Shown: piece after piece, positions 418 to 22,709 of the stretch | Layout: every line of letters begins with the position of its first letter | How positions within the stretch are numbered: position 1 is the stretch's first letter | Assembly: GCA_031425655.1 (NCBI GenBank) | Contig: JANPJS010000269.1 | Span: 1-22,804 of the forward strand | Reading direction: 5' to 3' | DNA: 22,804 nucleotides | Source: Abditibacteriaceae bacterium | GTDB lineage: Bacteria > Armatimonadota > Abditibacteriia > Abditibacteriales > Abditibacteriaceae | The notes under the pieces: model-generated | Told to the model about the DNA's origin: nothing | The model's database searches: none | Seen by the model: only the letters and a program-made list of their open reading frames with translations | Program-made: the position numbers and the translations under genes

Positions 418-840
418 TCACGAAGTCAGCAGTTGCCGTTCTGTATTATCGAAGGCGCTATCTTGGGAATTCGGCGGCGGGGCATCTTGGGTTGCGATGG
501 GGCGGTTGTTTTCGTCCACCAAAACTACGCGCGGACGCAGCGCACGCGCTTCGTCATCGGAGCAGAGACCGTAGGCGATGACGATAATAATATCGCCGGT
601 TTGCCCCAAACGCGCGGCGGCGCCGTTGAGACACATGGTTCCGCTGCCGCGCGGGCCGGGAATGGTGTAGGTTTCCAATCGCGCGCCGTTGTTGACGTTT
701 ACGATTTGCACTTGCTCGTAAGGCAAAATATCGGCGAGGTCGAGCAAATCGCTGTCAATGGTCAGCGAGCCGACGTAATTTAAGTTGGCATCCGTCACCG
801 TGGCTCGGTGGATTTTGCCTTTGCACATCGTTCTCAGCAT
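418..840 (-). CDS. panD: Aspartate 1-decarboxylase
   Basis: [29 protein letters not shown] with the Gly-Ser pyruvoyl cleavage site, plus NGARLETY and CLNGAAAR. Start placed at ATG 840, after GAGGG. Confidence 0.97.
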
Positions 841-860
841 AAAACCCTCTGGGAACCGCC

Positions 861-940
861 GAATAATGAACAAGCAACGTCGAAGGCTAAAGGATGGCCA
901 ACTTCGACATTCAAAATTCCGTGTTCGTTATTCGATATTC
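861..940. repeat. Imperfect inverted repeat of ~7-nt units between folK and panD, overlapping the folK stop
   Basis: Minus strand reads GAATATCGAATAACGAACACGGAATTTTGAATGTCGAAG - 16 nt - CTTCGACGTTGCTTGTTCATTATTC. Confidence 0.7.
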
Positions 941-1377
941 CAATCCTCATTCGTTTCCCTGACCCAACCGCCTTCAAGCACATCGCACAGCGGGCGCAAA
1001 ACGAAAGCGCGGCGCGTCATGCGCGGATGCGGCACCTGCAAGCCGGGTTCGTCAATCGCCGTGTCGCCGAAAAGCAGAATATCCACGTCTAAACTGCGCG
1101 AACCGGAGCGCGAACCCTCGCTTGGCACGCGCCCGAACGCCGATTCGACGGCTTGGGTCATGGCCAACAACGCGCGCGGCGAAAGCGTGGTTTCGATGCG
1201 CACGGCGGCGTTGAGAAAATCTTCCGGGCCGCCGCCTTCGACGCTTTGCGTTTCGTAAAGCGCCGAACGCGCGGCGACCGTGATTTGCGGATGATGTTCG
1301 AGCAGCTTGCACGCCTTGCGCAAATTCTCCGCGCGGTCGCCCAAATTGCTGCCCAAAGCTAAATAAGCGGTCGTCAT
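928..1377 (-). CDS. folK: 2-amino-4-hydroxy-6-hydroxymethyldihydropteridine diphosphokinase
   Basis: AYLALGSNLGDR, FLNAAV, RSLDVDILLF and LQVPHPRMTRRAFVLRPL motifs; adjacent to folB. Confidence 0.97.
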   Translation of the reverse strand: MTTAYLALGSNLGDRAENLRKACKLLEHHPQITVAARSALYETQSVEGGGPEDFLNAAVRIETTLSPRALLAMTQAVESAFGRVPSEGSRSGSRSLDVDILLFGDTAIDEPGLQVPHPRMTRRAFVLRPLCDVLEGGWVRETNEDWNIE

Positions 1378-1382
1378 GGAAA

Positions 1383-1745
1383 TTAGACTTCGCGGCTGCG
1401 TTCGATTTCGATACCGAGATATTCCAGCGCGACCGGCAGCGCGATATGCGGTTTGCGAATCCGCACGCGCACCTTTTGCACCATTTCATGCGACAAAGCA
1501 GCGTTTGCGATTCGCTCGGCGAGATGTTCTAAAAGCAGCGCCGATTCGCCTTCGACGATTTCGCGCGCCGCGTCGTAAATAGCGACGTAATTTAAGGTGT
1601 CGTCCAGCGAATCCGAGGCGCCCGCCGCGCGTAAATCGCAGTCGAGTTCGATGTCCACGAGGAACTTTTGTCCGAGTTCGCGCTCGGCGGCGTGACAGCC
1701 GTGTCGCCCGAAAAAGCTCAGGCCCTTCAATAAAATTCGATCCAT
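1383..1745 (-). CDS. folB: Dihydroneopterin aldolase
   Basis: MDRILLKGLSFFGRHGCHAAERELGQKFLVD, SDSLDDTLNY, LLEHLAERIA, KP motifs. Confidence 0.97.
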   Translation of the reverse strand: MDRILLKGLSFFGRHGCHAAERELGQKFLVDIELDCDLRAAGASDSLDDTLNYVAIYDAAREIVEGESALLLEHLAERIANAALSHEMVQKVRVRIRKPHIALPVALEYLGIEIERSREV

Positions 1746-1798
1746 ACCGAGAGGAATTTAACCACAGATGAACGCGGATAAACACAGATAAAGGCTTA

Positions 1799-2047
1799 TC
1801 ACTGCTGGGGCTTGTCTGACTTATTGAGCAAAAATATGGCAATGCTGGTCAGCAAGATTCCGAGCGCGCCTATGACCAATCCCATCCAATCCGGCGCAAC
1901 ATTGCTTTTCCCTACTACTACCTGAAAAGCGCGATAAATCGTGATTGCGCCGACAAAAACGCAATCGGTGCCAAAGAAGAATAACAACAACAGAAAGAGT
2001 TGTCCTACTGCGTTTAAAGATTTTCGATGCCGATTATCTGTGTCCAT
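1799..2047 (-). CDS. Small two-TM membrane protein (82 aa), cassette cargo
   Basis: Two hydrophobic segments (QLFLLLLFFFGTDCVFVGAITIY; WMGLVIGALGILLTSIAIFLL). The ATG lies inside the partial repeat arm, so the start is uncertain. More AT-rich than the flanks. Confidence 0.65.
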   Translation of the reverse strand: MDTDNRHRKSLNAVGQLFLLLLFFFGTDCVFVGAITIYRAFQVVVGKSNVAPDWMGLVIGALGILLTSIAIFLLNKSDKPQQ

Positions 2048-2066
2048 CCGTGACTCTGAACAGCGA

Positions 2067-2294
2067 TTACTGTTTGTCTTTGCCCGTGAAGAGAATGCAG
2101 GCAAGTAGCATTAAAAAGCCGCCGACAGCGCAGAAAACGACGCCGACGAGCGCCAAAAACCACGGTGCCCAGTCGCTGTGCGCTCCCAATGGCAAAGGCT
2201 TAAGCGCATAATAAATCGCAAGCACGCCGCTATAAATGCAGCCGCCTCCGACACAAAACAACAGAAAACAAAATACCTTCCCTGCCAGTTTCAT
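2067..2294 (-). CDS. Small two-TM membrane protein (75 aa), cassette cargo
   Basis: Two hydrophobic segments; residue pattern parallels the neighbouring ORF (G..F..LLF..G..C...G...IY.A ... DK). Confidence 0.7.
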   Translation of the reverse strand: MKLAGKVFCFLLFCVGGGCIYSGVLAIYYALKPLPLGAHSDWAPWFLALVGVVFCAVGGFLMLLACILFTGKDKQ

Positions 2295-2320
2295 AATGCG
2301 CCGCTGTTAACCATCCGTGT

Positions 2321-3205
2321 TTATCCGTGTTCATCCGTGGTTCTAACAATTGCGTCAGTCATGCGCGCGACTTGCGCCATTTGCTTCACGTCGTGAACGC
2401 GCACGATGTCGGCACCGTTGGCAATCGCTAAAGCCGTGGTCGCGGCGGTGCCGAAAAGTCGCTCGCCAATCGGCGCATCGTCGAGAATTTTACCGATGGT
2501 AGATTTGCGGCTCGTCGCCGAGAGCGTCGGGAAGCCGAAATCGCTGAGTTCGCGCCCGCGCCGCAGGATTTCCAGATTTTCATCCACGGATTTGCCGAAT
2601 CCGAAGCCGGCATCTAACGCGATGCGCTCATCCGCGATGCCCGCCGCTCGCGCCGCTTCAACTCGCTCGCGCCAGAAATCAAGAATCTCTTCAATTACAT
2701 CTTGATTCCGCATTCCGCATTCCGCATTCCGCACTTGCCGGCTCCATTCCATCGTTTGCGGCGTGCCGCGCAGGTGCATGAGAATCACGCCACAGTCGAA
2801 TTCGGCCAGCGTTGGGAGCATCGCTGGGTCGAAAGTGCCGGCGGAAATGTCGTTGATAATCGCGGCGCCGGCTTCAATCGCGGCGCGGGCAACGGCGCTT
2901 TTGGTGGTGTCAACCGACAAAGGAACGTCCAATCGCGCGGTCAGCGCCCTTATAAGAGGAAGGACGCGGCGCAATTCTTCGTCTTCGGGCACTTTTTCGG
3001 CGCCGGGGCGCGTGCTTTCGCCGCCGATGTCAAGAATATCGGCGCCGTCTTGCGCTAATTGCAGCGCGTGCGCCAGCATCGCGTCCAAGCCGCGCGCCGC
3101 AACGCCGTCGCCCGAAAACGAATCGGGCGTGGCGTTGACGATGCCCATCACATAAGTTTTGCGATGCAATTCCAGTGAATAACAACCGCATTTCCAAGTG
3201 TTCAT
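2321..3205 (-). CDS. folP: Dihydropteroate synthase
   Basis: VMGIVNATPDSFSGDG, DILDIGGESTRPGA, SVDT, DAGFGFGK, SRKS and RVHDV motifs. True start is probably ATG 3205; the 592-aa ORF extension overlaps the TPR gene. Confidence 0.97.
   Translation of the reverse strand: MNTWKCGCYSLELHRKTYVMGIVNATPDSFSGDGVAARGLDAMLAHALQLAQDGADILDIGGESTRPGAEKVPEDEELRRVLPLIRALTARLDVPLSVDTTKSAVARAAIEAGAAIINDISAGTFDPAMLPTLAEFDCGVILMHLRGTPQTMEWSRQVRNAECGMRNQDVIEEILDFWRERVEAARAAGIADERIALDAGFGFGKSVDENLEILRRGRELSDFGFPTLSATSRKSTIGKILDDAPIGERLFGTAATTALAIANGADIVRVHDVKQMAQVARMTDAIVRTTDEHG
2705..2732. repeat. Heptamer tandem repeat (ATTCCGC)x4 inside folP
   Basis: attccgc attccgc attccgc attccgc; translated in frame as VRNAECGMRNQ between PQTM and DVIEEI. 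Confidence 0.9.
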
Positions 3206-3213
3206 AAGAGGAA

Positions 3214-3332
3214 AAACGGGAAGACGGAAAGGGCGGTAAGACGGGAAGAAAATTTGAATTTCTGACAACACAAAGCTGTTCAAAAACTCCGGTTCCTCTT
3301 CCCGACTTACCGCCCTTTCCGTCTTCCCGTTT
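3214..3332. repeat. 36-bp near-perfect inverted repeat of ~8-nt units (ACGGGAAG) upstream of folP
   Basis: AAACGGGAAGACGGAAAGGGCGGTAAGACGGGAAGA (3214-3249) versus TCTTCCCGACTTACCGCCCTTTCCGTCTTCCCGTTT (3297-3332), 35/36 complementary, 47-nt spacer. Confidence 0.95.
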
Positions 3333-4892: not shown

Positions 4893-5759
4893 TTAGAAAC
4901 TTACGCTGAAATTGAGGCCGGGATCGCGTTTGCCATCGGGGTTGCCGACGGCCAAAGCCGTCACGCTGTAGCGTTGCCAATTGTAAGTGGCGGCCAAGTG
5001 CGAACGCACGCCGTCGTGCAGCAGCGTGGCGCTCCAATGCCGTCCCAAACTGGCATTCACGCCCCACGGCACGAGAACGCGCTTTTCAAATTCGCTGTAA
5101 CTTAGGCCGACATAAGGCGAGATGGGCACGCCCAAATGCGGCTGTAAACTTTTGCTAAGCGTGGCGAAATAAGATTGGCCATTTGGCGTGCCGATGCGGT
5201 CGGAGCTGGTGCCGAAAATCAGCGCCGGACGCGTCCTCGTTTCCCGCACGGCGCGCCAATTCGCTACGATGCCCAATTCTTTCACGCCAGCGTTATATTC
5301 CAAGCCCACACGCCAATCGGGTGAAGCTTGATACGTCAAGATGGTGCGATGTGTGGCGCGCTTGATTTGTCCCGAAATGTATCTTTGCGAAAGTGACCAT
5401 CGCAAAATGGTGTTAGTGCCAGTCCCACGGACTGCGGTGCCTTCGCCCGGTCAGCCAGGTCACGAAGGCACCAGCGAGGCCATGTCCGGCGTTTTCGGCT
5501 TAACGCTCTTTTTGGGAGTTTGGCCGCTGGCCTGCAATTCCCGAAGCGTATCGAAAAGCTGCGAAAAGCGTTCGGGATCGGCTAAAAACTCGTCTTTGCA
5601 GGCGCGGTCTCGCAAATAATAGGTTTTTCCGGCGTATTCGACTGTTTCCGCTGTTGGAGTTGGTTTATCGAGAAGACAATCGGCGCCGGCGGCGAACGCC
5701 GGACGAAGCGAAAAAAGGCTTATTGCGGCCCCGAAAACCAATAAAGTGATGTGCTTCAT
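4893..5759 (-). CDS. Predicted exported double-selenoprotein (288 aa): signal peptide + YHS-like domain + U-P-G-U motif + beta-strand-rich C-terminal domain
   Basis: ORFs 5460..5759 and 4893..5405 share a frame (offset 354). The linker reads ATG GCC TCG CTG GTG CCT TCG TGA CCT GGC TGA CCG GGC GAA GGC ACC GCA GTC CGT GGG ACT GGC ACT AAC ACC ATT TTG CGA TGG; its only stops are the two TGA. The downstream part has no ATG or RBS of its own. The coding status of both halves is clear; the readthrough is inferred. Confidence 0.75.
5420..5434 (-). promoter_or_regulatory. Candidate bacterial SECIS hairpin
   Basis: mRNA CAGUCC-GUG-GGACUG: 6-bp perfect stem with a G-initiated loop, 22 nt after the second UGA and 31 nt after the first. 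Confidence 0.6.
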
Positions 5760-6454
5760 GGCTTTTCCGATGCTGTATCCGGCGTTTTTTCGGCCAGCGC
5801 GCTTTCGATGGCTTGAACAATGACTTCAGGCGAGGTTTTTTCGCCGAAACGCCGCAAAATCTTACCGTCGCGCCCGACTAAAACTAAAGACGGCAGCACG
5901 CTGATTTTGTAATCGCTCCACAGTTTTTCCGTGGCCTGCGCCATCGGATAAGTCGCGCCGGATTTTTTCACGAATTTGGCGACGAGTTCGGGCTTTTCAT
6001 CAATGGCCAGCCCGATAACGCTGAATTTCTTCGCCGCATATTTTTTGTGAAGCGCTTGAAGTTTGGGCAGCGCCGCCACGCACGGTTTGCAGAACGTGCC
6101 CCAGAAATCGAGAAGCAAAACCTGACCTTTGAAATCGCTGAGTTTCAGCGTGCGGCCTTGCAAATCGCGCTGTGCGAACGACGGCGCCGGTTGGCCTTCG
6201 CCGGTATCGAGAAATTCGGTTGGATTTTCTAAGAACTCGACTTTGCACGCGACGGCGCAAAACGAGAACGTTTTGCCACGCAGCGTGGCCGTAGCATTTA
6301 CAGGCTCAACATCGGCGCCTTCGCGAGGCCCGCAGACCGCGCAAACGGCTTGGATAGCAGCTTTCGATGCTGCCGGAGCCGCTAAAACCACGCGCGGCGC
6401 GCATAAAGGCAACGCCAAACCAAGACTCAACATAAAACAAGAAGTAATTTTCAC
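5756..6454 (-). CDS. Exported YHS-domain + TlpA/ResA-like thiol-disulfide oxidoreductase
   Basis: Signal peptide; YHS-like CAVC...RGKTFSFCAVACKVEFLENPTEF; APSF..DLQGRTLKLSDFKGQVLLLDFWGTFCKPC; LPSLVLVGRDGKI. Its stop overlaps the next start (ATGA at 5756-5759). Confidence 0.92.
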   Translation of the reverse strand: MKITSCFMLSLGLALPLCAPRVVLAAPAASKAAIQAVCAVCGPREGADVEPVNATATLRGKTFSFCAVACKVEFLENPTEFLDTGEGQPAPSFAQRDLQGRTLKLSDFKGQVLLLDFWGTFCKPCVAALPKLQALHKKYAAKKFSVIGLAIDEKPELVAKFVKKSGATYPMAQATEKLWSDYKISVLPSLVLVGRDGKILRRFGEKTSPEVIVQAIESALAEKTPDTASEKP

Positions 6455-6594: not shown

Positions 6595-8127
6595 TCAACT
6601 TTCCAATGAACTTAAATCGCTGTTGGCCGGGCCATTGACGACATGGCCTCTGGCGTCGAAGCGCGAGCCGTGAGCAGGGCAGTCCCAGCTTTTTTCGCTG
6701 CTGTTCCAACGCACGATGCCGCCCAAATGCGGGCAAACCGCCGATTTTTCGTGCAAAGCTCCGCTTTCATCGCGGAAGCAGGCGATTTTGTGCAAGCCCT
6801 TCCTTATAATGGCGCCTTCGCCGGGCGCGATGTCATCGGCGGAATGCACGTCGCCGCCAGTTACCCAATCGGCGTATTGCGCGGCCATATTGCCGCTTTC
6901 CTTTAGAAATTCGCCCGCCGCGCGCAGAGTTTTGCGCGCCGGATTGTAAAGCCCCGCCCATTCGTTATCGCGGCCCAAAATCAAATCGCGGATGAGAATT
7001 CCCGCAATGGTGCCATGCGTCATGCCCATGCCGCTGTCGCCGGTTGCGATGAAAACATTGGGCGAATCGCTGGGATTACGTCCGATAAAGGCCAAACCGT
7101 CAACCGGTTCGAGCACCTGTCCCGACCAGCGAAACAGCACTTCGCCGAGCGGCGTAAAGCGTTCGCGCGCCCATTCTTCCAAATTGGCGTAGCGCGATTC
7201 GGCGTCGTCGGCTTGGCCGGTTTTGTGATCTTCGCCGCCGACAATCAACACTTCGTTGGCTTCGTCCAACGCTTGCAATCGCACATAATGATAAGGATCG
7301 GCGGTATCCCAATAAAGTCCCGGCTCGACGGCGCCTTTTGGCACTTGGGCGCCGATGACGTAAGTGCGATAGGCTGCTTGTTTGGTGTGCATCGTCACCA
7401 TGTCGTTGAAGGGCGAATTGGTGGCGACAACCACGAATGTGCAAGTGACTTCGTGCCCGCCCGCGACTTCGACGCGCGCCACGTCTTCCGATTCGGTGCT
7501 GATTTTTTCAACGTGGCTGCCGCAGTAAATCTTGCCGTCGTATTTTTCGACGGCGCCGGCCAATCCGTCCAAGTATTTTAAAACGTGGAACTGCCCCTGA
7601 CGCGGAAAGCGCAGCGCCGGGCCGCTCTCGAAATCCACAAGCGGCGCGCGTTCGATTTTCTCGACAGCGTTATGTCCGGCGCGGCGTGCGGCTTCGAGTT
7701 CATCATCGAGAACTTGCGTGTCTTCGCCCGGCGCGGCGAAAAGAAAGCCGTCCAATCGCGCGAAATCGCATTCGATGCCTTCCAGCCGCGTGATGCCTTC
7801 TATTTCATCAATCGCGGCGTTGTGGCTCTCGAAGGCGAGTTGGGCGCCGCGTGCGCCGTGCAAACGCTCAATTTCCACATAGGTGTCGTCAATTTCGTTG
7901 GATAAATGCGCCGTGGTGCGCGAAGTTTCGCCGCCGCCAATCGCGCCATCATCTAACACCACGACCGAGCGCCCGGCTTTAGCCAGTTGATAAGCAACGC
8001 TCAATCCGGCGATGCCGGCGCCGATAACGCAAACATCGGCCTCGACATCTTCGTTCAACGGTGCGTAAACCGGCACTTGGGCGGTGGCAATCCACAGCGA
8101 AATACTTTGTCCTAATTCGGGATTCAT
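6595..8127 (-). CDS. FAD-dependent oxidoreductase (DAO family) with C-terminal Rieske 2Fe-2S domain, YhfW-like
   Basis: DVCVIGAGIAGLS dinucleotide motif; Rieske boxes CPHLG and WDCPAHGSRF; AAGGAG before ATG 8127. Confidence 0.93.
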   Translation of the reverse strand: MNPELGQSISLWIATAQVPVYAPLNEDVEADVCVIGAGIAGLSVAYQLAKAGRSVVVLDDGAIGGGETSRTTAHLSNEIDDTYVEIERLHGARGAQLAFESHNAAIDEIEGITRLEGIECDFARLDGFLFAAPGEDTQVLDDELEAARRAGHNAVEKIERAPLVDFESGPALRFPRQGQFHVLKYLDGLAGAVEKYDGKIYCGSHVEKISTESEDVARVEVAGGHEVTCTFVVVATNSPFNDMVTMHTKQAAYRTYVIGAQVPKGAVEPGLYWDTADPYHYVRLQALDEANEVLIVGGEDHKTGQADDAESRYANLEEWARERFTPLGEVLFRWSGQVLEPVDGLAFIGRNPSDSPNVFIATGDSGMGMTHGTIAGILIRDLILGRDNEWAGLYNPARKTLRAAGEFLKESGNMAAQYADWVTGGDVHSADDIAPGEGAIIRKGLHKIACFRDESGALHEKSAVCPHLGGIVRWNSSEKSWDCPAHGSRFDARGHVVNGPANSDLSSLES

Positions 8128-8335
8128 GGCTGCTCCTTGATTTCGCCCGGCCCAGCAGCAAGCGAAGTGCCGGAGCAAAGAAAGCGTAACGCGACGTTAG
8201 GTTGAAATCGAAAGTGGGCATAATATGAACGCGAAATGTTTTTGTTAAGCAAAAATTGCATCGCCGTGATATAATTTCACCATTCCATTGCCGCATTACG
8301 CCGCCCCGTGGAGATTATCCGAAGGAGATTGTTTT

Positions 8336-9775
8336 ATGTTTGAAACCACTGAACACAGCAATTGTTCGAACGTGCAAACCGTGGCCTCGCGCCGCGAGTT
8401 CCTGCAAACCGCCGGGGCCGGTATGGCCGGTTTGGCTTTAACCGTGCTTCTCGATGGCCAAGACGCGCACGCTGCGGCGCCATCGCTTTTGGTGCCGTCA
8501 AAAGGCGGCGCCAAGAAAATCGCGGTTGCCAACGGGCCACTCGCGCCCAAAATGCCGCCGCTGCCGGCCAAAGCGAAATATGTGATTCACATTTTCGCGG
8601 GCGGCGCGCCCAGCCATGTGGACACCTTCGACCCGAAGCCGGGAATGCAAAAGCACCGCGATCAAACCGTCGGCAATTCGGGCGGCGTGATCTTTCCGTC
8701 GCCTTTCGAGTTCCCCAAATGCGGCAAAAGCGGCCTGGAAATCAGTGAAATCTTCCCCAAATTGGGCGAAGTCGCCGACGAAATGTGCGTGATTCGCTCA
8801 CTGACCGCCGATGTGCCGGCTCACGGCCCCGCCGCCAAATTTATGAACACCGGCTCGCTGGTTTTAACCAAACCCAGCCTCGGTTCGTGGGTGCTTTATG
8901 GATTAGGAACGGAAAACCAGAATTTGCCCGGCTTCGTGGCTTTGGGCGGCAGCCCGGATTGGCGCCAATCGGCGTTTTTGCCTTCCCTTTATCAGGGCGC
9001 CAAAACCGATTACCGCGCCGGAGCGCCCGTAGACAAAGTTTTACCGAACCTGCGCAGCGACTTCGCCACGCAAGACGAGCAGCGTTTGCAGCTCGAATTG
9101 GCGCACAAACTCGACGATATGCACATGGAAAAAGTGCGCCGCGACGAGCAACTCGAAGCGCGCATTGATTCGTTTGAATTGGCTTTTCGGATGCAAACCG
9201 AAGCCATCGAAGCCTTCGATATCACCAAAGAAACGCAGGCCACACGCGATCAATATGGCAAAGGCCAGCTTGGCGCGCGTCTTCTCGTGGCGCGCCGTTT
9301 AGTTGAGCGCGGCGTGCGTTTTGTGCAAGTAGACGCCGGCGGTTGGGATCACCACGCCAACCTGGAAACTTCCATCACGCGCACCGCTGCGGAAATTGAC
9401 AAAGCGGCAGGCGCGCTCATCGCCGACTTGAAAGTGCGCGGCTTGCTCGAAGAGACTCTTGTCATCTGGGGCGGCGAATTCGGACGCACACCGACGACCG
9501 AAGGGCGCGTTGGCGAAGCATCAGGGCGCGATCACCACTCGAAGGTCTATTGCACCTGGATGGCCGGCGGCGGCGTCAAAGGCGGCACGGCTTACGGTTC
9601 CAGCGACGAACTGGGCATGAACCCCGGCACCAATCCCGTGACCGTGCATGATCTGCACGCCACGATTCTGCGCTTGATGGGCTTCGATCATAAGAATCTC
9701 ACCTATCGTTACAACGGGCGCGACTTCCGACTCACCGACAACTTCGGCGAGATCATCAAAGACATCATTGCGTAA
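8336..9775 (+). CDS. DUF1501 domain protein with Tat-like signal
   Basis: SRREFLQ twin-arginine motif; GAPSHVDTFDPKP, ARRLVERGVRFVQV, WDHH, GEFGRTP, GRDH, HDLHATIL; AAGGAG before ATG 8336. Confidence 0.93.
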   Translation: MFETTEHSNCSNVQTVASRREFLQTAGAGMAGLALTVLLDGQDAHAAAPSLLVPSKGGAKKIAVANGPLAPKMPPLPAKAKYVIHIFAGGAPSHVDTFDPKPGMQKHRDQTVGNSGGVIFPSPFEFPKCGKSGLEISEIFPKLGEVADEMCVIRSLTADVPAHGPAAKFMNTGSLVLTKPSLGSWVLYGLGTENQNLPGFVALGGSPDWRQSAFLPSLYQGAKTDYRAGAPVDKVLPNLRSDFATQDEQRLQLELAHKLDDMHMEKVRRDEQLEARIDSFELAFRMQTEAIEAFDITKETQATRDQYGKGQLGARLLVARRLVERGVRFVQVDAGGWDHHANLETSITRTAAEIDKAAGALIADLKVRGLLEETLVIWGGEFGRTPTTEGRVGEASGRDHHSKVYCTWMAGGGVKGGTAYGSSDELGMNPGTNPVTVHDLHATILRLMGFDHKNLTYRYNGRDFRLTDNFGEIIKDIIA

Positions 9776-9781
9776 AACCGG

Positions 9782-9824
9782 AAGGGCAGGCGTCGCTTTG
9801 CAGCGGCGCCTGCCCTTGTTTTTT
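9782..9824 (+). terminator. Rho-independent terminator-like hairpin
   Basis: AAGGGCAGGCGTCGCT-TTGC-AGCGGCGCCTGCCCTT followed by GTTTTTT. Confidence 0.8.
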
Positions 9825-9874
9825 CACTTCAGGGCGGACATGGCGATTTGGTCGCCGATTGTCACTTTACTCCC

Positions 9875-12800
9875 ATGCGCACCCTCTCATTTTTGCTTCT
9901 TTTGTCCATGCCGGCGGCGGTTTTAACAGCGGCGCCGGTTTTTGCTGCCGACGAAAAGCCCGACGCCAAAGGCGTCGAGTTTTTCGAGGCGAACATCCGC
10001 CCCGTTTTAATCGAAAAGTGCTATTCCTGCCACAGCCTTGCAACGAAAGCCAAAGGCGGATTGTTGCTCGACACCCGCGAATCTACCCTGCGCGGCGGCG
10101 GGAGCGGCCCGGCTATCGTGCCCGGCAAGCCCGACGAAAGCCTGCTTTATAAGGCGATTGCCTACGCTCAGGCCGATTTGCAAATGCCGCCCGCGGCCAA
10201 ACTTCCGGCGGCTCAAATCAGTGCCATCCGCGCGTGGATTCAAATGGGTGCGCCCGACCCACGCGATAAGCCTCCTGCGGGCGCCGGAGCCGGCGTTCTC
10301 AACGGCATGACGCCCAAAGCCAAGTCTCACTGGGCTTTCAAGCCGTTGAAAAAGGTCGAAGTGCCCAATCCGCCCGATGACGTGCAATGGCCCGGTTGGA
10401 CGAAAAACGCCGTGGATCGCTTTGTTTTGGCTTCGCTGCAAGCCAAACGCATCGCGCCGAGCGCTACGGCGCCGCGCGCCACGCTGATTCGCCGTTTGAG
10501 CTACGACTTGCTTGGCTTGCCGCCCACGACGTTGGAAATGAAGGCGTTTGTCAATGACAAATCGCCCGATGCGTGGGAAAAAGTGGTGGATAGAATGCTT
10601 GCAAGTCCGCACTATGGAGAGCGCTGGGGGCGTCACTGGCTCGATTCGGCGCGTTACTCCGACACCACAGGCAACGATGACGACGGCGGCAGTATGCGCA
10701 TCTCGGATTATCGCTTTCCCTATGCGTGGACGTATCGTGACTACGTCGTTAAGGCCTTTAACGATGACAAGCCGTATAACCAGTTCCTCATCGAGCAAAT
10801 CGCCGCCGACAAACTGCCGGACGTGAAGCCGAACGACGAGCGACTGGCTGCTCTGGGATTCTTGACGGTTGGCAAACGCTTCGCCAACAACGACGACACC
10901 ATTGACGAGCGCATTGACGCCTTAACTAAATCCACGATGGGCCTGACTGTGGCTTGCGCGCGTTGCCACGACCACAAGTTCGACCCGATTCCGACTGCCG
11001 ATTATTACGCGCTGCACGGCGTTTTCGATTCGCTTTACGAGCCGGAAGAAAAGCCGCAATTGGCGACCGAAGCCAAAGAAGACGACCGCGTGCAGTTCGC
11101 CATGAAACTGGCGACGCTGGAAAGCAAAAACCGCGACGTAATTTACAAAATCCTGCGCGACCGCTTGACGCAGTTCCAGGACGGCGCCGAAGGTTATTTG
11201 CAGATTGCCCTGCTGCCCAACCGCTCGCCGCGCCGCGCTGACTTGGCCAAGCAATACAAGATCAACCCCGACGAGCGCGAGATTTTCGATTCGCTGCGTA
11301 TCGGCGGCGACCACCCGGTTCTTGGCCCTTTTCAACAACTGGCGCGCGTGCCGGACGATTCGTTCGCCGACAAATCCGCCGAACTGATTCCCAGAATCCT
11401 CAAAGACAAGAATTACAACCCGCTGGTCACGGCGATGCTGCGCGATTTGAAGCCGCAGTCGCTGCTCGATTTGGCCAAAGCTTACGGCTCGCTCTTCGCT
11501 AAAGCCAAGCAATCCACGCCGGATTACTTCCGCGAGCGTTCCACGGCGGGCAACAAGATCGTGCCCGTGGATGCGGCGATGGAACAAATCATCAACACGC
11601 CGTATTTCATTCCCGCCGCCGATGACATCTCCACGGCGCCGCAGCAGGCCGAATACTTTTCATCGCGCAAGCTGATGAAAGAAAGGTGGCAGCGTGCCAT
11701 CGAACTGGACGGCAGCGAGCGCCGCTTGCTTTTCGCGGCCATCAACGAATTGCGCCTGACCGAAAAAGGCGCCACGCCCGCCGCGATGATTATTGGCGAC
11801 AAAGCCAACCCGCGCAACAGCCGCATTTTCATTCGCGGCGAACGCTCCCGTCTTGGCGCCGAAGCGCCGCGCCAGTTTTTGGAAATCGCCGCCGGGCCGG
11901 GCCGCCAGCCGTTCAAAGAAGGCGCCGGACGCCTCGAATTGGCCCGCGCCATCGCCGATAAACAGAATCCTCTAACGGCGCGCGTCATGGTCAACCGCGT
12001 GTGGATGTATCACTTCGGCGAAGGCTTCGTGCGCTCGCCGGACGACTTGGGCAATATGTCGGAAACGCCCAGCCATCCCGAACTGCTCGATTATTTGTCT
12101 GGCTGGTTCATGGAGCGCGGCTGGTCGGTGAAGCAACTGCACAAGCTGATTTTGATGTCGAAAACTTATCAGCAGGACAGCGAAACGCGCTTCGACGGCG
12201 AGGAAGGCAACCCCGACAACCGCTTGCTGTGGCGCTCGAATTTGCGCCGTCTCGACTTCGAGGCGATCCGCGATTCGATGCTGCAACTGACCGGCAAAAT
12301 GGACACGACCGTCGGCGGCCAACCGGCCAACATCACCGACGAGCCGTATTCGTATCGCCGCAGCGTTTATGGGTTCGTGGATCGTTTGAATTTGTCCGAC
12401 CTGATGAGTCAGTTCGATTTCGCCAATCCCGAAATGACCAACACCAAGCGCATCACCACGATTGTGCCGCAGCAGGCCTTGTTCTTTATGAACAACGCGC
12501 TGCCCGTCGAAGTGGCGCGGCAGATAGCGGCGCGGCAAAGCGTGACCAACGCACCCGACGACGTGGCGCGTGTCGAAGCGATTTACGAAGTGCTTTTCCA
12601 ACGCGCGCCCAAAGAGCGCGAAATCGCTATGGCCGGTGCATTCATCCAGAAAGCCACGGAAATCTACGACAAAAAAGTGCCCGACGCTTCTGCTGCGGGC
12701 AAAGAAGGCAAGAAAGAGGGCAAAATGGTCTGGAAAGACGGCAAAATGGTCTGGGAAGCCAAAAAGCCGGTCAAAGAAGCGCCCAAACACATCGGCACCA

Positions 12801-12979
12801 TGATGATGCAGATGGATCCGAAAGCCGAAATTGACATGGGCAAAATGTCCGAAATGGCGCGCAACAAGTTCGCAGTGATGAAAAACGAAGGCGACCTTGT
12901 CGAACGCAAACCGCTCACGCCATGGGAGCTTTACGTGCAAGCGCTGCTTTATTCCAACGAGTTCGTTTATGTGAACTAA
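9875..12979 (+). CDS. Planctomycete-type cytochrome c + DUF1549 (PSCyt2) + DUF1553 (PSD1) protein
   Basis: Signal peptide; FFEANIRPVLIEKCYSCH; HWAFKP; YGERWGRHWLDSARYSDT; CARCHDHKFDPI; NPLTARVMVNRVWMYHFGEG; PSHPELLDYL; ends SNEFVYVN. Confidence 0.95.
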   Translation: MRTLSFLLLLSMPAAVLTAAPVFAADEKPDAKGVEFFEANIRPVLIEKCYSCHSLATKAKGGLLLDTRESTLRGGGSGPAIVPGKPDESLLYKAIAYAQADLQMPPAAKLPAAQISAIRAWIQMGAPDPRDKPPAGAGAGVLNGMTPKAKSHWAFKPLKKVEVPNPPDDVQWPGWTKNAVDRFVLASLQAKRIAPSATAPRATLIRRLSYDLLGLPPTTLEMKAFVNDKSPDAWEKVVDRMLASPHYGERWGRHWLDSARYSDTTGNDDDGGSMRISDYRFPYAWTYRDYVVKAFNDDKPYNQFLIEQIAADKLPDVKPNDERLAALGFLTVGKRFANNDDTIDERIDALTKSTMGLTVACARCHDHKFDPIPTADYYALHGVFDSLYEPEEKPQLATEAKEDDRVQFAMKLATLESKNRDVIYKILRDRLTQFQDGAEGYLQIALLPNRSPRRADLAKQYKINPDEREIFDSLRIGGDHPVLGPFQQLARVPDDSFADKSAELIPRILKDKNYNPLVTAMLRDLKPQSLLDLAKAYGSLFAKAKQSTPDYFRERSTAGNKIVPVDAAMEQIINTPYFIPAADDISTAPQQAEYFSSRKLMKERWQRAIELDGSERRLLFAAINELRLTEKGATPAAMIIGDKANPRNSRIFIRGERSRLGAEAPRQFLEIAAGPGRQPFKEGAGRLELARAIADKQNPLTARVMVNRVWMYHFGEGFVRSPDDLGNMSETPSHPELLDYLSGWFMERGWSVKQLHKLILMSKTYQQDSETRFDGEEGNPDNRLLWRSNLRRLDFEAIRDSMLQLTGKMDTTVGGQPANITDEPYSYRRSVYGFVDRLNLSDLMSQFDFANPEMTNTKRITTIVPQQALFFMNNALPVEVARQIAARQSVTNAPDDVARVEAIYEVLFQRAPKEREIAMAGAFIQKATEIYDKKVPDASAAGKEGKKEGKMVWKDGKMVWEAKKPVKEAPKHIGTMMMQMDPKAEIDMGKMSEMARNKFAVMKNEGDLVERKPLTPWELYVQALLYSNEFVYVN

Positions 12980-16172: not shown

Positions 16173-19100
16173 TTGTCTGCTTCCACTGTTGCTCCGCCTG
16201 TCCGCACGTTTCAGAAATTGCTCGTGGCCAATCGCGGCGAAATCGCCGTGCGCGTGTTACGCGCCGCCACCGAGCTTGGCCTGCGCACCGTCGCCATTTA
16301 CGCGCAGGAAGACCGCTTTGGCGTGCATCGCTTCAAAGCCGATGAAGCGTATCTTGTCGGCGAAGGCAAAGGCCCGGTCGCGGCTTATCTCGACATCGAA
16401 AGTATCGTCGCGTTGGCCAAAGAAAAAGGCGTGGACGCCATTCATCCCGGCTACGGTTTTCTGTCCGAAAACGCCAATTTTGCCCGCGCCTGCCAAAAAG
16501 CGGGCATTGAATTCGTCGGGCCGCGCGCCGAGCTTTTGGAATTGATGGGCGATAAAATCGCCGCGCGTGCCCTTGCCGAAAAAGTGGGTGTGCCGACGCT
16601 ACCGGGAACGCCCGAAGCCATCGCCGACCGCAAAAAGGCGCTCAAAACCGCGCAGAAAATCGGCTTTCCTCTGATTATCAAAGCGGCGGCGGGCGGCGGC
16701 GGGCGCGGAATGCGCGTCGTGCAAAAGCCCGAAGATTTGGAAAATCTGCTCGAAGAAGCGCAAAACGAAGCCGAACGCGCCTTCGGCGACGCGTCCGTCT
16801 TCCTCGAAAAATATATTCCGCGCGCCAAGCACATCGAAGTGCAGATTTTAGGCGACCGGCATGGCAACGTCGTGCATTTGCACGAGCGCGATTGCTCGGT
16901 TCAGCGGCGTCATCAGAAAGTTATCGAAATCGCGCCGTCGGTTGACCTTGACGAGACGATTCGCCACGAATTGTGCGGCGCGGCGGCCCGTTTGGCCAAA
17001 GAAATCGGCTACGACAACGCCGGAACCGTCGAATTCCTGCTCGATACCGACAAAAACGAGTGGTTTTTCATCGAAATGAACCCGCGCATTCAAGTCGAGC
17101 ACACCGTCACGGAAGTGATTACCGGCATTGACCTTGTGCGTTCGCAGGTTCTCATCGCCGAAGGCCACGAATTGCACGGCGAACGCATTGCCATTCCCGC
17201 GCAAAACGAAGTGCCGCGCATTGGTTACGCGGTGCAGGCGCGCATCACGACCGAAGACCCCGAAGCCAAATTTACGCCCGATTACGGCAAAATTCTCGCT
17301 TATCGTTCACCGGGCGGCTACGGAATTCGCTTGGACGGCGCTTCGGGCGCGGTCGGCGCGGTTATCACGCCGTTTTACGATTCGCTTTTGGTGAAGGTCA
17401 CGGCGTCCGGCAGCACTTTTGAAATGGCGCTGGGACGCATGGATCGTGCGTTGCGTGAGTTTCGCGTTAGGGGCGTCAAGACCAACATTCCGTTTCTGGA
17501 AAACGTGGTGCAAAACCCTGCGTTTCGCGCCGGCAAAGCGACGACGACGCTGATTGACACCACGCCGTCGCTGTTTGAATTCGAGCCGCGCCGCGACCGC
17601 GCGACGAAATTGCTCAATTTCATCGGAGAAACGGTCGTCAACGGCAACCCGCACGCGAAAGGCTACAAGCCGGCGCAGGCGCTCAAACGTGTGGCTGCGC
17701 CCGCTTACGATCACAAAACGGAAGCGCCCAAAGGCACACGCCAGCTTTTGCTGGAATTGGGGCCAAAAGGCTTCGCCGACTGGACGCGCAAGCAAAAACG
17801 GCTGCTCGTCACCGACACCACGCTGCGCGACGCGCATCAATCGCTGCTGGCAACGCGCGTGCGCAGCTACGATATGCTGACCATCGCGGGCGCCATCGCG
17901 CAGCGCACGCCCCAACTGTTTTCGCTCGAAATGTGGGGCGGCGCGACCTTCGACACCACGATGCGTTTTCTGCGCGAAGACCCGTGGGACAGGCTGCACG
18001 ATTTGCGCGAAAAAGTGCCGAATATCTGCTTTCAAATGCTGTTTCGCGGCTCGAACGCGGTCGGATATTCCAATTATCCCGACAATATCGTCGCGGGTTT
18101 CGTCAAGCATTCGGCGGACGCGGGCATTGATATTTTTCGCATCTTCGACTCGCTGAATTACGTCCCAAACCTCAAAGTGGCGATGGACGCCGTGCAAAAA
18201 ACGCACGCCATCTGCGAAGCCGCGATTTGCTACACCGGCGACATTCTCGACCCCAATCGCACCAAATATTCGCTGAAATACTACGTGGATTTAGCGAAAG
18301 AATTGGAGGGCATGGGCGCGCATATTTTGGCCATTAAAGACATGGCCGGATTGTGTCGCCCGTATGCGGCGCAGGCCTTAGTCAAGGCGTTGCGCGACGA
18401 AATCGGCATCCCGATTCACTTTCACACGCACGACACCAGCGGCGTCAATGCGGCCAGCGTGCTGCGCGCCGCGGATGCCGGAGTGGACATCGCCGACCTT
18501 GCCATCGCTTCGATGTCCGGTTCAACCAGCCAGCCGAATTTGAATTCAATTGTCGCGGCTTTGCAGCACACGCCGCGCGATACCGGGCTGGATTTAGGGG
18601 CTTTGGACGAGTTTTCTGATTATTGGGAGCAGGTTCTCGAATATTACAAGCCGTTCGATACCGCTCCGCGCGCCGGCACCGCCGAAGTGTATTTGCACGA
18701 AATGCCGGGCGGACAATACACCAATTTGAAGGAGCAGGCAGCGGCGATGGGTCTGGCGCATCGCTGGCCGGAAATCGCGCGCACTTACAAGCAGGTCAAC
18801 GATTTGTTCGGCGACATCGTGAAAGTGACGCCGAGCAGCAAAGTCGTCGGCGATTTGGCGATGTTTTGCATCACGCGCGGCATGAAGCCGGACGATATTC
18901 TCAACCTCGAACCGGGCGCCACACCGTTTCCCGAATCCGTCATTGATATGCTGATGGGCGGTTTGGGCCAGCCTGTCGGCGGCTGGCCCAAAAAACTGCA
19001 AAAAGTCGTGCTCGGCGACCGCAAACCATTGAAAACACGGCCTGGTGCCGGTTTGAAGCCGCTCAATTTAACGAAGGTGCGGGGCGAAATCGAAGAAAAA

Positions 19101-19649
19101 ATCGGACGCAAAGCCTCGGACGACGATCTTTACGATTACCTGATGTATCCCGAAGTCTTCGTCGAGTTTGCGCGCTTCGCCGGCGATTATTCGGATGTTT
19201 CCGTTCTGCCGACGCCGACCTTTTTCTACGGATTGCAGCCTGACGAAGAAATTTCCGTCGAAATCGAGCCGGGCAAAGTGCTGATTATCAAGATGATCAA
19301 CGTCGGCGCCGTGGACAAAGAAGGCCAGCGCATCGTCACTTTCGAGTTGAACGGCATGACGCGCACGGCGGCGATTCAGGATAAATCGGTCAAAGCCGAA
19401 AAACCCGCGCGCCTCAAAGCCGACGCGAGTGACCCGATGCAAGTCGCGGCGCCGATTCCCGGCATGGTGACTTCGCTGGCGTGCAGTGTTGGCGGCAAAG
19501 TGGCGAAGGGCGAAAAACTCATCACGCTCGAAGCCATGAAAATGTATACGACCATCAACGCGCCCGCCGACGGCGTGGTCGAAGCGATTCACGCCGCGGT
19601 CGGCGATACGGTTGAAAGCAAAGATTTGCTGGTGAAATTGCGGGCGTAG
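16173..19649 (+). CDS. pyc: Pyruvate carboxylase
   Basis: KLLVANRGEIA, HPGYGFLSEN, ERDCSVQRRHQK, DTTLRDAHQSL, WGGATFD, HFHTHDT, KVTPSSKVVGD and EAMKM biotin site; AGGAG before TTG. Confidence 0.99.
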   Translation: MSASTVAPPVRTFQKLLVANRGEIAVRVLRAATELGLRTVAIYAQEDRFGVHRFKADEAYLVGEGKGPVAAYLDIESIVALAKEKGVDAIHPGYGFLSENANFARACQKAGIEFVGPRAELLELMGDKIAARALAEKVGVPTLPGTPEAIADRKKALKTAQKIGFPLIIKAAAGGGGRGMRVVQKPEDLENLLEEAQNEAERAFGDASVFLEKYIPRAKHIEVQILGDRHGNVVHLHERDCSVQRRHQKVIEIAPSVDLDETIRHELCGAAARLAKEIGYDNAGTVEFLLDTDKNEWFFIEMNPRIQVEHTVTEVITGIDLVRSQVLIAEGHELHGERIAIPAQNEVPRIGYAVQARITTEDPEAKFTPDYGKILAYRSPGGYGIRLDGASGAVGAVITPFYDSLLVKVTASGSTFEMALGRMDRALREFRVRGVKTNIPFLENVVQNPAFRAGKATTTLIDTTPSLFEFEPRRDRATKLLNFIGETVVNGNPHAKGYKPAQALKRVAAPAYDHKTEAPKGTRQLLLELGPKGFADWTRKQKRLLVTDTTLRDAHQSLLATRVRSYDMLTIAGAIAQRTPQLFSLEMWGGATFDTTMRFLREDPWDRLHDLREKVPNICFQMLFRGSNAVGYSNYPDNIVAGFVKHSADAGIDIFRIFDSLNYVPNLKVAMDAVQKTHAICEAAICYTGDILDPNRTKYSLKYYVDLAKELEGMGAHILAIKDMAGLCRPYAAQALVKALRDEIGIPIHFHTHDTSGVNAASVLRAADAGVDIADLAIASMSGSTSQPNLNSIVAALQHTPRDTGLDLGALDEFSDYWEQVLEYYKPFDTAPRAGTAEVYLHEMPGGQYTNLKEQAAAMGLAHRWPEIARTYKQVNDLFGDIVKVTPSSKVVGDLAMFCITRGMKPDDILNLEPGATPFPESVIDMLMGGLGQPVGGWPKKLQKVVLGDRKPLKTRPGAGLKPLNLTKVRGEIEEKIGRKASDDDLYDYLMYPEVFVEFARFAGDYSDVSVLPTPTFFYGLQPDEEISVEIEPGKVLIIKMINVGAVDKEGQRIVTFELNGMTRTAAIQDKSVKAEKPARLKADASDPMQVAAPIPGMVTSLACSVGGKVAKGEKLITLEAMKMYTTINAPADGVVEAIHAAVGDTVESKDLLVKLRA

Positions 19650-20494: not shown

Positions 20495-20719
20495 ATGAGT
20501 TTGCAGGAAATCGAAAAACAGATCGAAGCTTTAACGCCCACCGAGTTTGCGGAATTGGCGCGTTGGATGCTTGCACATCGCCCTGTAGCGCCTCAATCGA
20601 AGAACGCACTTGATGTGTTGTTCGAGAACGCAGGCAGCCTTTCCATGCCGCCCGATTGGGCCGAAGAGCACGAGCATTATTTGTATGGCGTTCCCAAGCA
20701 GCACCAGAATGAGCAGTGA
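20495..20719 (+). CDS. Putative antitoxin
   Basis: 74 aa; ends PPDWAEEHEHYLYGVPK, a tail typical of genes upstream of PIN toxins; overlaps the toxin start. Confidence 0.8.
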   Translation: MSLQEIEKQIEALTPTEFAELARWMLAHRPVAPQSKNALDVLFENAGSLSMPPDWAEEHEHYLYGVPKQHQNEQ

Positions 20720-21129
20720 TGGCGGAGCATTATTTTCTGGACACGTTTTTTGTGCAGGCCATTTTGAATGGTGCCGATGCTTATCACGAGCGAGCCGTGC
20801 AATGGAAGCCGGTGCTGTATCAATCCGAAATTTGGGTTACGGAAGCCGTATTAGTCGAAGTGGGCAATGCCCTGAGTAAAACAAGTCGCACCATAGCTGC
20901 GGACTTTATAATCGGTTGTTACTCTGCGCCTAACATTCATGTCGTTGCCGTTACATCGGAGTTGTTTGAACTTGGTCTTTCCCTTTACTTGGAGAGGCCC
21001 GATAAAGAATGGGGTCTCACCGATTGCATATCGTTCGTGGTGATGACCAGTCAGGGTATTCGTCTCGCCTTGACCGGCGATCATCATTTCGCGCAAGCTG
21101 GATTCACGCCCGTTTTGTCTTCGTTGTAA
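20719..21129 (+). CDS. vapC: PIN-domain (VapC-like) toxin
   Basis: YFLDT, VTEAVLVEVGNALS, DKEWGLTDCISFVVM, ALTGDHHFAQAGF; TGATG coupling to the antitoxin. Confidence 0.92.
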   Translation: MAEHYFLDTFFVQAILNGADAYHERAVQWKPVLYQSEIWVTEAVLVEVGNALSKTSRTIAADFIIGCYSAPNIHVVAVTSELFELGLSLYLERPDKEWGLTDCISFVVMTSQGIRLALTGDHHFAQAGFTPVLSSL

Positions 21130-21159
21130 TCGTGCCTAAAAACCGATACGACGATCAAC

Positions 21160-21248
21160 TGAAACTGCGGGCGTGAAACGAATTTAGAATTGAGAAGCAG
21201 CGCGGCGAGGTTCTCGCCGCGCTGCTTTGTTTTACTTAATTGGGTGAT
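21160..21248 (+). repeat. Cassette leader: 17-bp pyc tail + heptamer repeat + hairpin
   Basis: TGAAACTGCGGGCGTGA, GAATTTA GAATTGA, AAGCAGCGCGGCGAG-GTT-CTCGCCGCGCTGCTT, TGTTTTACTTAATTGGGTGAT. Confidence 0.92.
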
Positions 21249-21253
21249 GCAAG

Positions 21254-21517
21254 ATGACAGTCGAACAAATTGTGGCTGAAGTGCGTGCCATGCCGCCGAA
21301 CGAACGACAGAAACTGCGCGCAGTATTGGATGAGACGCCGGAGGGTGAGGCGACTATACGGGCGCGCGAGCGCGCCTTCGCCGAGAAACTGCGGGCCGAG
21401 AGTGCGGCCTATCGCGTTGACTTTGACGAAACGGCGGTTGTGGATAGCTGGGAGTTCAAGCCTGTTTCCATCGAGGGAAAACCCATTTCGGAAACCATTA
21501 TCGAGGAACGGCGCTAA
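21254..21517 (+). CDS. Putative antitoxin
   Basis: 87 aa; ends GKPISETIIEERR; TAATG overlap with the PIN gene. Confidence 0.85.
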   Translation: MTVEQIVAEVRAMPPNERQKLRAVLDETPEGEATIRARERAFAEKLRAESAAYRVDFDETAVVDSWEFKPVSIEGKPISETIIEERR

Positions 21518-21996
21518 TGGGCCTGCTCTTTCTCGACAGCAGCGCGCTGGTCAAACGCTATGTTGCAGAAACCGGCTCATCGTGGATCAACGGATTAATG
21601 TTGGTATTGGATGCTGACGGCAAGCCGGTGAATACGGTTGTCGTCGCCAACGTGACGCTGGTGGAAGTGACGTCGGCGCTGGCCCGCCGAGCGCGTGGCG
21701 GCAGCATCAGCAAAACGGACGCGGTTGCTCTTCAGGCGCAATTTCGCAGCGAAATCAATATCCGGTTTTTCGTTAAAGATTTGACGGCCTCTCAAATCGC
21801 CGCTGCGATGGACGCCGCTGAGAAACACGTTCTGCGCGGCTACGACGCCGTGCAGTTGGCAGTTGCGCTTTTTTTGAACAAAGAACGCACATTGGACGGA
21901 TTGCCGATGCTGACTTTCGTCGCTGCTGACGCGGAACTGCTCGCCGCCGCGCACGCTGAAGGCTTGCCGGTGGATAACCCAAATCTGCATCCGTAA
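21517..21996 (+). CDS. vapC: PIN-domain (VapC-like) toxin
   Basis: FLDSSALVKRYVAETGS, VEVTSALARR, LRGYDAVQLAVA, FVAADAELLAAAHAEGL. Confidence 0.93.
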   Translation: MGLLFLDSSALVKRYVAETGSSWINGLMLVLDADGKPVNTVVVANVTLVEVTSALARRARGGSISKTDAVALQAQFRSEINIRFFVKDLTASQIAAAMDAAEKHVLRGYDAVQLAVALFLNKERTLDGLPMLTFVAADAELLAAAHAEGLPVDNPNLHP

Positions 21997-22115
21997 AGCA
22001 AAGATTTGCTGGTGAAACTGCGGGCGTGAAAAGAATTTAGAATTTAGAATTGAGAATTGAGAAGCAGCGCGGCGAGGTTCTCACCGCGCTGTTTTGTTTT
22101 ACTTAATTGGGTGAT
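21995..22115 (+). repeat. Cassette leader: 35-bp pyc tail + heptamer repeats + hairpin
   Basis: AAAGCAAAGATTTGCTGGTGAAACTGCGGGCGTGA (21995-22029), (GAATTTA)2(GAATTGA)2, hairpin 22062-22094, TGTTTTACTTAATTGGGTGAT. Confidence 0.95.
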
Positions 22116-22120
22116 TCAAC

Positions 22121-22390: not shown

Positions 22391-22393
22391 TTC

Positions 22394-22690: not shown

Positions 22691-22709
22691 TAGCGAAACT
22701 GAAGAGCTG

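Follow-up and report, generated by a model that had tools for sequence, protein, structure and literature searches.

The locus and its reading frame

The window analysed here is a 22,804-nt stretch of DNA from an Abditibacteriaceae bacterium. On its reverse strand, a gene predicted to encode an outer-membrane beta-barrel protein with a UxxU motif (5759-4893) can be translated as a single frame of 288 codons followed by a terminal TAA. In-frame TGA is found only at codons 100 (5462-5460) and 103 (5453-5451), in the context ...DMASLVPS-U-P-G-U-PGEGTAVRG.... The ORF listing of the window cuts this gene in two, into 5460-5759 (99 aa) and a TTG-started frame at 4893-5405 (170 aa), and databases carry the barrel as N-truncated entries of 130-180 aa. 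The distal frame contains no Met and, by eye, there is no obvious Shine-Dalgarno sequence near its TTG. The initial annotation had proposed one frame interrupted only by two TGAs, a distal part lacking start signals of its own, a C-terminus reading GLNFSVSF and a gene that annotation pipelines would split; the translation, the ORF listing and the database entries agree with it on each of these points. Neither TGA is altered in the differences listed over 5451-5462 for contigs of three further runs. The closest named relative, an Abditibacteriaceae MAG, shows 70% identity and puts the source genome within or close to that family of Armatimonadota.

Codons 1-23 (5691-5759) encode a probable signal peptide, with a basic N-terminus, a hydrophobic core and an AFA-A cleavage-like site; these features, like the signal-like N-termini of the homologues, were recognized by eye. 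Residues 1-22 are disordered in the AlphaFold2 model (pLDDT <50). They are followed by a degenerate YHS-like domain (residues ~26-77, 5529-5684) in which Cys28 and Cys54 are kept. PF04945 matches residues 36-66 (E-value: 3.2e-5) at 24.3 bits, under its cut-off of 30.3, and the domain is folded in the model (pLDDT ~80-90).

Immediately upstream on the same strand (5756-6454), with its stop codon overlapping the ATG of the barrel gene (ATGA), is a gene for a 232-aa exported YHS-TlpA/ResA-type thioredoxin. The initial annotation was correct as to the barrel gene and overlooked this one, which proves to be the most constant partner of the family. The protein matches PF00578 (E-value: 1.2e-20) and PF08534 (E-value: 6.3e-20), and alignment shows the redoxin fold with the FWxTxCxPC motif and cis-Pro loop of TlpA/ResA proteins, with scores below the equivalog cut-offs of the named TlpA/ResA models. 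Its CKPC is encoded at 6091-6080, and its YHS domain has four Cys at residues 38-70.

Elsewhere in the window, we take a reverse-strand cluster (418-3270) to resemble panD, folK, folB and folP, and a FAD oxidoreductase-Rieske fusion is encoded at 6595-8178 (reverse strand). Recognized by eye were a divergent pair resembling DUF1501 and planctomycete-type cytochrome proteins (8288-12979), a pyruvate carboxylase gene (16173-19649, forward strand) and three tandem small-gene pairs resembling antitoxins and PIN-domain toxins (20495-22693, forward strand), the last PIN gene of which appears truncated.

Recoding of the two UGA codons

Homologues were compared at 138 distinct loci (L021-L051 and L063-L189, with duplicates removed, and without L032, where the contig stops short of the motif). 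A search for related loci in genome contigs returned one true member and 11 YHS-only matches, and L052-L062 were excluded from all counts. The first predicted Sec codon (Sec100, 5460-5462) is TGA at 131/138 loci and TGY at 7/138, while the second (Sec103, 5451-5453) is TGA at 133/138 and TGY at 5/138. The codon pairs are TGA/TGA (131 loci, UxxU), TGC/TGA (2 loci, CxxU) and TGY/TGY (5 loci, CxxC). Because the same two codons recur in 131 of the 138 loci, whereas the true terminal stops of these genes are mixed (58 TGA, 49 TAG and 23 TAA, n=130), the paired TGAs are not due to chance. Alignment of Cys with in-frame UGA, as in bacterial selenoproteins, is seen in the CxxU and CxxC loci, and stop-free full-length CxxC orthologues (of the type P-T-C-A-G-C-A-G-E-A) occur in protein databases. 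The initial annotation had asked whether homologues have Cys or TGA at the aligned positions and had named two genes split by TAA, TAG or frameshifts as a refuting outcome; TGA or Cys is kept at both positions, and TAA or TAG was found at either one in 0/138 loci.

Some sequences are noted here individually. A stop-free homologue (P0125) has the motif C-V-G-W, with Trp replacing the second Sec, and remoter barrels of the same superfamily (P0143, P0190, P0208, P0211 and P0253) carry no Cys/Sec motif ahead of the barrel. The CxxU forms L175 (G283:C3) and L031 (G031) are unrelated to each other. L175 is very divergent, lies on a long branch and has the motif C-P-L-U-A-A-G-G; its genome carries a UxxU and a CxxC copy as well, which makes L175 the third paralogue there.

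The SECIS element called for by the initial annotation is represented by a hairpin (CAGUCC-GUG-GGACUG, 5420-5434, reverse strand) whose apical G lies at +23 from the second UGA and +32 from the first. Under the bSECIS rule, the loop is 3-9 nt with a G in its first two positions, the spacing is 16-37 nt downstream and the MFE is ≤ -7.5 (PMC13188914). When this rule was applied to each sequence using our own script with MFE folding, the source hairpin gave -8.6 kcal/mol and 133/133 TGA loci passed, as did 2/5 CxxC loci and, for controls shifted to eight positions, 13-44/133. A stricter version requiring a perfect stem, which missed the Pyrinomonadaceae-type hairpin (one G-G mismatch) and whose regex took in 5 spurious motifs, was passed by 68/123. 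The structure predicted from 28 aligned loci has seven stem pairs closed by a 3-nt loop that begins with G; 86.7% of cells pair and 6/7 stem pairs show double-sided changes. Its covariation score was matched by 0/500 shuffles (0.67 vs 0.12-0.23 in slid registers), with a warning from the tool that kinship alone may outscore shuffles. Folded singly, the source hairpin is not unusual (z -0.73 to +0.10). Across the family, hairpin loops begin mostly at +23 or +18 after the second UGA. As both UGAs fall inside the 16-37 nt spacing, one hairpin can plausibly serve both, an arrangement also proposed for UxxU hydrogenases in the accessible part of PMC13582414. The family lends itself to testing how two UGAs separated by 9 nt are decoded with a single SECIS.

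The source genome encodes the Sec machinery that the initial annotation had suggested searching for: selA, selB, selD and tRNA-Sec (selC) are all present, each above its cut-off, and the SelD frame itself has an in-frame TGA. In a sample of 301 Armatimonadota genomes, profile matches to the barrel family were found in 51 and the TGA form in 41. The remaining ten comprise two with contig-edge fragments, four with stop-free forms only and four with weak profile matches. By hand count, selA is present in 39/41 TGA-form genomes vs 155/301 overall, and the other two have selB; as these counts include kin and are not independent, we give no P value. Two 98% complete genomes carrying only the CxxC form (G225 and G241) lack selA, selB and tRNA-Sec, while two with only stop-free forms (G090 and G276) do have selA. 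Within the source genome's own family, 3/26 relatives have the barrel gene, all among the 4/26 that have selA. The profile-based genome search located 44 places with two TGAs, 2 with a single TGA and 9 that are stop-free and of CxxC type; of these 9, 5 were verified. A similar check in Acidobacteriota was uninformative, with selA in 26/26 carriers but also in 18/20 non-carriers. Based on these results, we are highly confident that the locus is one gene in which both UGAs would be recoded via SelB, tRNA-Sec and one downstream SECIS, giving an exported Sec-Pro-Gly-Sec protein. Sec (rather than Cys) at both UGAs and a diselenide in the barrel protein are predictions.

The barrel, its plug and the TlpA partner

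AlphaFold2 models residues 121-288 (4896-5399, reverse strand) as a 12-stranded beta-barrel, both in the source protein (pLDDT 84) and in a natural CxxC orthologue (pLDDT 92, pTM 0.85). The barrel strands have pLDDT >90 and the terminal Phe (F288) is conserved in 92%, so that the model has the even number of amphipathic strands and the terminal aromatic residue of outer-membrane beta-barrels. The best fold matches, among small or plugged outer-membrane barrels of 12 strands, are FapF (Z 16.8, rmsd 2.2, 166 aligned), KdgM and a COG4313 channel; for model 1, VIA-align gave Z 16.3, rmsd 2.4 and 154 aligned for KdgM, Z 15.8, rmsd 2.9 and 169 aligned for the COG4313 channel, and Z 15.7, rmsd 2.6 and 171 aligned for FapF. 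The source barrel protein (P0001) has no thioredoxin Pfam match and its motif sits on the barrel plug, not inside a thioredoxin fold as in SelL and Prx-like proteins; the non-thioredoxin scaffold foreseen in the initial annotation is what the models give.

The plug segment (residues 91-120, 5400-5489, reverse strand) was delimited from DSSP of the two models and fold alignments, which put U-P-G-U-P-G-E-G at the tip of a predicted hairpin. A hairpin is suggested because the short segments either side of the motif are bridged in both models (96-97 with 110-111 in the source protein). For both models, the alignments to EspP and Hbp begin at the motif residues, which correspond to EspP 1022-1023 and Hbp 1100-1101; the accessible part of PMC3564066 describes these as positions within the pore. 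From this correspondence, judged by DSSP strings and alignment ranges as opposed to coordinates, the UxxU is placed in the lumen. Residues R126, R138, S185, D187, R188, K203, Y216, D249 and H254 are invariant, and the polar character of these residues is consistent with a conserved lumen. On the strength of the models, it is very likely that the last 168 residues fold into an outer-membrane barrel of 12 strands whose lumen the linker enters from the periplasmic side, carrying UxxU at its tip.

The initial annotation described the protein as signal peptide, YHS, UxxU and barrel. The UxxU and barrel part of that description stands, while YHS does not define the family: a YHS-like motif precedes UxxU at 33/138 loci, and at 49/138 neither YHS nor a fused TlpA lies ahead of the motif. 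The family core is a signal peptide, a UxxU plug (UxxU-PGEG) and the barrel, with YHS optional. A tblastn search of the 138 loci with the source TlpA found the partner fused to the barrel at 56 loci; at 25 it lies upstream and at 19 downstream, and it went undetected at 38, many of these last being on short contigs; it is thus adjacent or fused at 100/138 loci, and it also occurs beside CxxC forms. In a TlpA tree most fused partners lie apart from separate ones, a pattern that falls short of showing independent recruitment. The source gene shares the degenerate-YHS architecture with a Thermoanaerobaculia-like clade (55% identical). In many Acidobacteriota TlpA is fused, in some cases together with a four-Cys domain and His-rich linker, and the CxxC clade has three YHS domains. 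His-rich linkers, with 4-9 His within the last 45 residues, are present in 17/55 fusions. Gene callers split the family systematically, so fused TlpA proteins are annotated without their barrel.

In two Pyrinomonadaceae-type fusions (L143 and L157), the N-terminal ~140 aa form a four-Cys exported domain (CxxCW...C...C) before TlpA, which has no Pfam match at E ≤ 1e-5. In fused loci such as these two and L164, termination at the first UGA would release a complete soluble TlpA ending S-x-V-P-S/A. Selenium supply could therefore determine how much of the TlpA is free and how much is tethered to the barrel. The source genome also has a DsbD-type gene (G000:C40:3261-5279, reverse strand), a 673-aa frame in which a DsbD transmembrane domain is combined with a CxxC thioredoxin at the C-terminus, located ~2 kb from selD (91-1128) and selC (1187-1277) on the same contig. 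Its product is a candidate electron donor to TlpA.

Beyond TlpA, no neighbour is universal across the family loci. Heavy-metal genes recur, including those for P1B ATPases, CsoR, CusA-like RND pumps, a cation-efflux protein and Cu/Zn SOD. A metal gene was found in 14/60 larger loci vs 1.9% of random 11.5-kb windows of the source genome, a count that is partly circular, as the queries were drawn from the same loci (5/14 matches are the query's own locus), and in which 5/14 loci hold an ArsR-like regulator alone and relatives are not independent. No metal-type neighbour is present at the other 46/60 larger loci, and none was seen in the window from its ORF list and profile searches of four ORFs.

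In phylum samples around a Pyrinomonadaceae and a Planctomycetota genome, carriers numbered 26/301 (all with two TGAs) and 9/301 (all UxxU), respectively. A pattern scan found the family in at least 599 metagenome stretches; it gives no Cys:Sec ratio, as the pattern misses the CxxC clade and the best 80 of the at least 599 were kept. In a quick tree, CxxC forms make up one clade (SH-aLRT 100) amid many UxxU lineages; with a midpoint root only, this suggests, short of showing, that the CxxC clade is derived from UxxU. The source TlpA and the source barrel (the latter with support 98) both group with a small Acidobacteriota clade that includes L187 (G412) and has the same gene order, and transfer of the cassette (4893-6454) between phyla is possible. 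Cys forms are outnumbered by Sec forms here, in contrast to the majority of selenoprotein families, and this scarcity may explain why searches for Cys/Sec pairs missed the family.

Possible functions and comparison with known systems

We propose that a TlpA fed by DsbD would reduce the diselenide of the plug to a diselenol in the oxidising periplasm. The fusions and operon structure make this step probable. The reduced selenolate pair would then ligate a soft metal such as Cu(I), and the barrel would act as a small gated pore for metal capture or passage, with the periplasmic YHS, four-Cys and His-rich modules taking the metal over. A soft metal is favoured because of these modules (YHS in one to three copies) and the heavy-metal neighbours. 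There is a partial precedent in the accessible text of PMC7558416, where Cys pairs are reduced by TlpA ahead of Cu loading and OprC holds Cu at CxxxM-HxM. Several features tell against this chain: the 46/60 larger loci that lack a metal-type neighbour, the 49/138 loci with neither YHS nor a fused TlpA ahead of the motif and the 38 at which TlpA was undetected. Moreover, a globular TlpA could get to a mid-lumen motif only if the plug were mobile, and several of the invariant lumen residues are Arg or Lys, a better fit for an anion than for a bare cation. The whole chain, through to soft-metal capture or gating, is accordingly put forward as a tentative reading that may well prove wrong.

A less likely reading, which keeps the same gene and fold, is a redox relay across the outer membrane, with UxxU as the catalyst on a mobile plug that TlpA would reduce on the periplasmic side and that would in turn reduce an external anion or disulfide at the outer mouth. 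Candidate substrates are polysulfide, thiosulfate, a low-molecular-weight disulfide or a metalloid oxyanion. The fused or adjacent TlpA agrees with a relay, as do the minimal form (signal peptide, UxxU and barrel), which has no metal-binding module, and the basic invariant residues R126, R134, R138, R188 and K203, several of which are predicted from strand order to be near outer loops. Most CxxU/UxxC Sec proteins are, moreover, considered redox-active in the accessible part of PMC13188914. A relay would leave the YHS, His-rich and four-Cys modules unexplained, and no substrate-pathway genes recur among the neighbours. More doubtful still is the idea that the barrel is an outer-membrane counterpart of DsbD/CcdA, in which a tethered diselenide plug carries electrons from DsbD and TlpA to the surface without haems. 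If true, such an electron shuttle would be categorically new and would imply selenium-dependent reduction of external disulfides, metals or metalloids by soil and sediment Acidobacteriota, Armatimonadota and Planctomycetota.

An autotransporter-like role, with the linker threading the barrel to display the YHS or TlpA domain at the cell surface, is improbable. The EstA autotransporter barrel is among the top fold matches (Z 15.8, rmsd 2.8, 168 aligned) and the motif aligns to the lumen segment of such barrels, but the paired segments around the motif suggest, in the models, a hairpin returning to its side of origin. The linker is Pro/Gly-rich and has no helix, TlpA carries an export signal of its own where a separate gene encodes it, and at the surface it would be without an electron source.

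We give slightly less credence again to the view that recoding of the UGAs inserts Cys, through a tRNA-ReC (SelC*), either at both sites or at one of them with Sec at the other, to give a CxxC or CxxU barrel. CxxU and CxxC forms do occur naturally, and the accessible part of PMC13582414 reports tRNA-ReC-like genes in 5/5 Armatimonadota genomes with UxxU hydrogenases and points out that Cys may be inserted at these UGAs. Against this, the sole credible UCA tRNA in the source genome is a canonical 91-nt tRNA-Sec (discriminator G), accompanied by one cysS over its cut-off and one selB. No ReC candidate (≥80 nt, UCA/GCA anticodon, intact T-arm) was seen by eye among 283 relaxed-threshold ARAGORN calls, a result that covers the source genome alone and in which tRNAs may be unassembled. 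The same genome has compact tRNA arrays on contigs C61, C215, C217 and C317 of G000, some with atypical D-arms, and a 91-nt tRNA of ambiguous anticodon at C217:2459-2549.

That the first TGA is a true stop, with a separate barrel gene starting downstream or a pseudogene, is very improbable: the N-truncated database entries, an ATG four codons past the second TGA in the Thermoanaerobaculia-like clade and one locus broken within the barrel (G471) would fit, but neither position ever has TAA or TAG, Cys substitutes in 7 loci, stop-free full-length orthologues are known, the ATG is not conserved and the barrel starting from it would lack a signal peptide, the SECIS hairpin has been conserved and genomes with the TGA form tend to be those with the Sec machinery.

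The preferred reading is a recoded double selenoprotein with a thioredoxin partner. This family is real and apparently undescribed. NCBIfam (release 20) gave no match at E<0.05, either for P0001 or for the 38 members searched, a PDB sequence search gave 0 matches at E ≤ 1, and Pfam gave weak YHS and YjbH matches and nothing else. The 2026 catalogue of 119 families, which lists three UxxU families and two outer-membrane selenoproteins, has no entry that fits (PMC13188914); the families of Haft and Tolstoy (2025) were compared through its table and NCBIfam. Nor was a description found in the literature, in which subscription journals were scarcely covered, including the accessible parts of PMC9312934, the deep-Sep paper (PMC12013277) and BSepDB (PMC13326102). 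The initial annotation had likewise not recognized the architecture as a described family.

SelL is the classic UxxU selenoprotein. The UxxU families in the catalogue are a Prx-like thiol:disulfide oxidoreductase (PF00578), a metal-binding protein (NF041115) and an FmdB-family regulator (PMC13188914), to which the accessible part of PMC13582414 adds variants of Group 4 [NiFeSe] hydrogenases. The barrel family resembles these in having two Sec three residues apart, Cys counterparts and one SECIS that plausibly serves both UGAs. The known proteins have thioredoxin, small metal-binding or hydrogenase folds, whereas here the motif is on the plug of an outer-membrane barrel, and at E ≤ 0.05 the NCBIfam models of known UxxU families matched none of the 38 members. 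The GSU2204 MtrB/PioB barrel (NF041027) and the FCYXU TonB-dependent receptor (NF049945) also combine Sec with an outer-membrane beta-barrel. Those are large barrels of other families with a single Sec, as opposed to ~170 aa, 12 strands and two Sec, and their models matched 0/38 members. The YHS selenoprotein model NF041384 (GxU, one Sec) also gave no match, and both predicted Sec residues lie outside the YHS region.

FapF, the COG4313 channel, KdgM/NanC and autotransporter beta-domains share the 12-stranded fold (Z 14-17, rmsd 2.2-3.1) and a lumenal N-terminal segment, at 7-14% identity. In such plugged barrels, neither a dithiol/diselenide plug nor a TlpA partner is known to us. The barrel resembles type Va autotransporters in fold; its linker is without helix and has the hairpin pattern in DSSP. 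YjbH barrels (PF06082) matched weakly in 2/38 members (best E-value: 0.013, far under the cut-off) and are carried by ESM-Atlas feature neighbours (score 0.96), while a PF06082 search of the source genome gave no match; the small YjbH barrels are at most distant relatives.

In mode of action, the closest analogies may be periplasmic TlpA with ScoI/CoxB, where a Cys pair is reduced before metal loading, and OprC, an outer-membrane transporter with a Cys-based Cu site, both as described in the accessible text of PMC7558416. These are works-like comparisons only: the ScoI/CoxB clients are not barrels, OprC is TonB-dependent with a CxxxM-HxM site and, as far as that text goes, neither contains Sec. 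The family would point to an envelope function, either metal gating or outward electron transfer, for which we found no described equivalent. Every part of it has precedent and none was found for the combination, which joins two rare features, a UxxU motif and an outer-membrane barrel.
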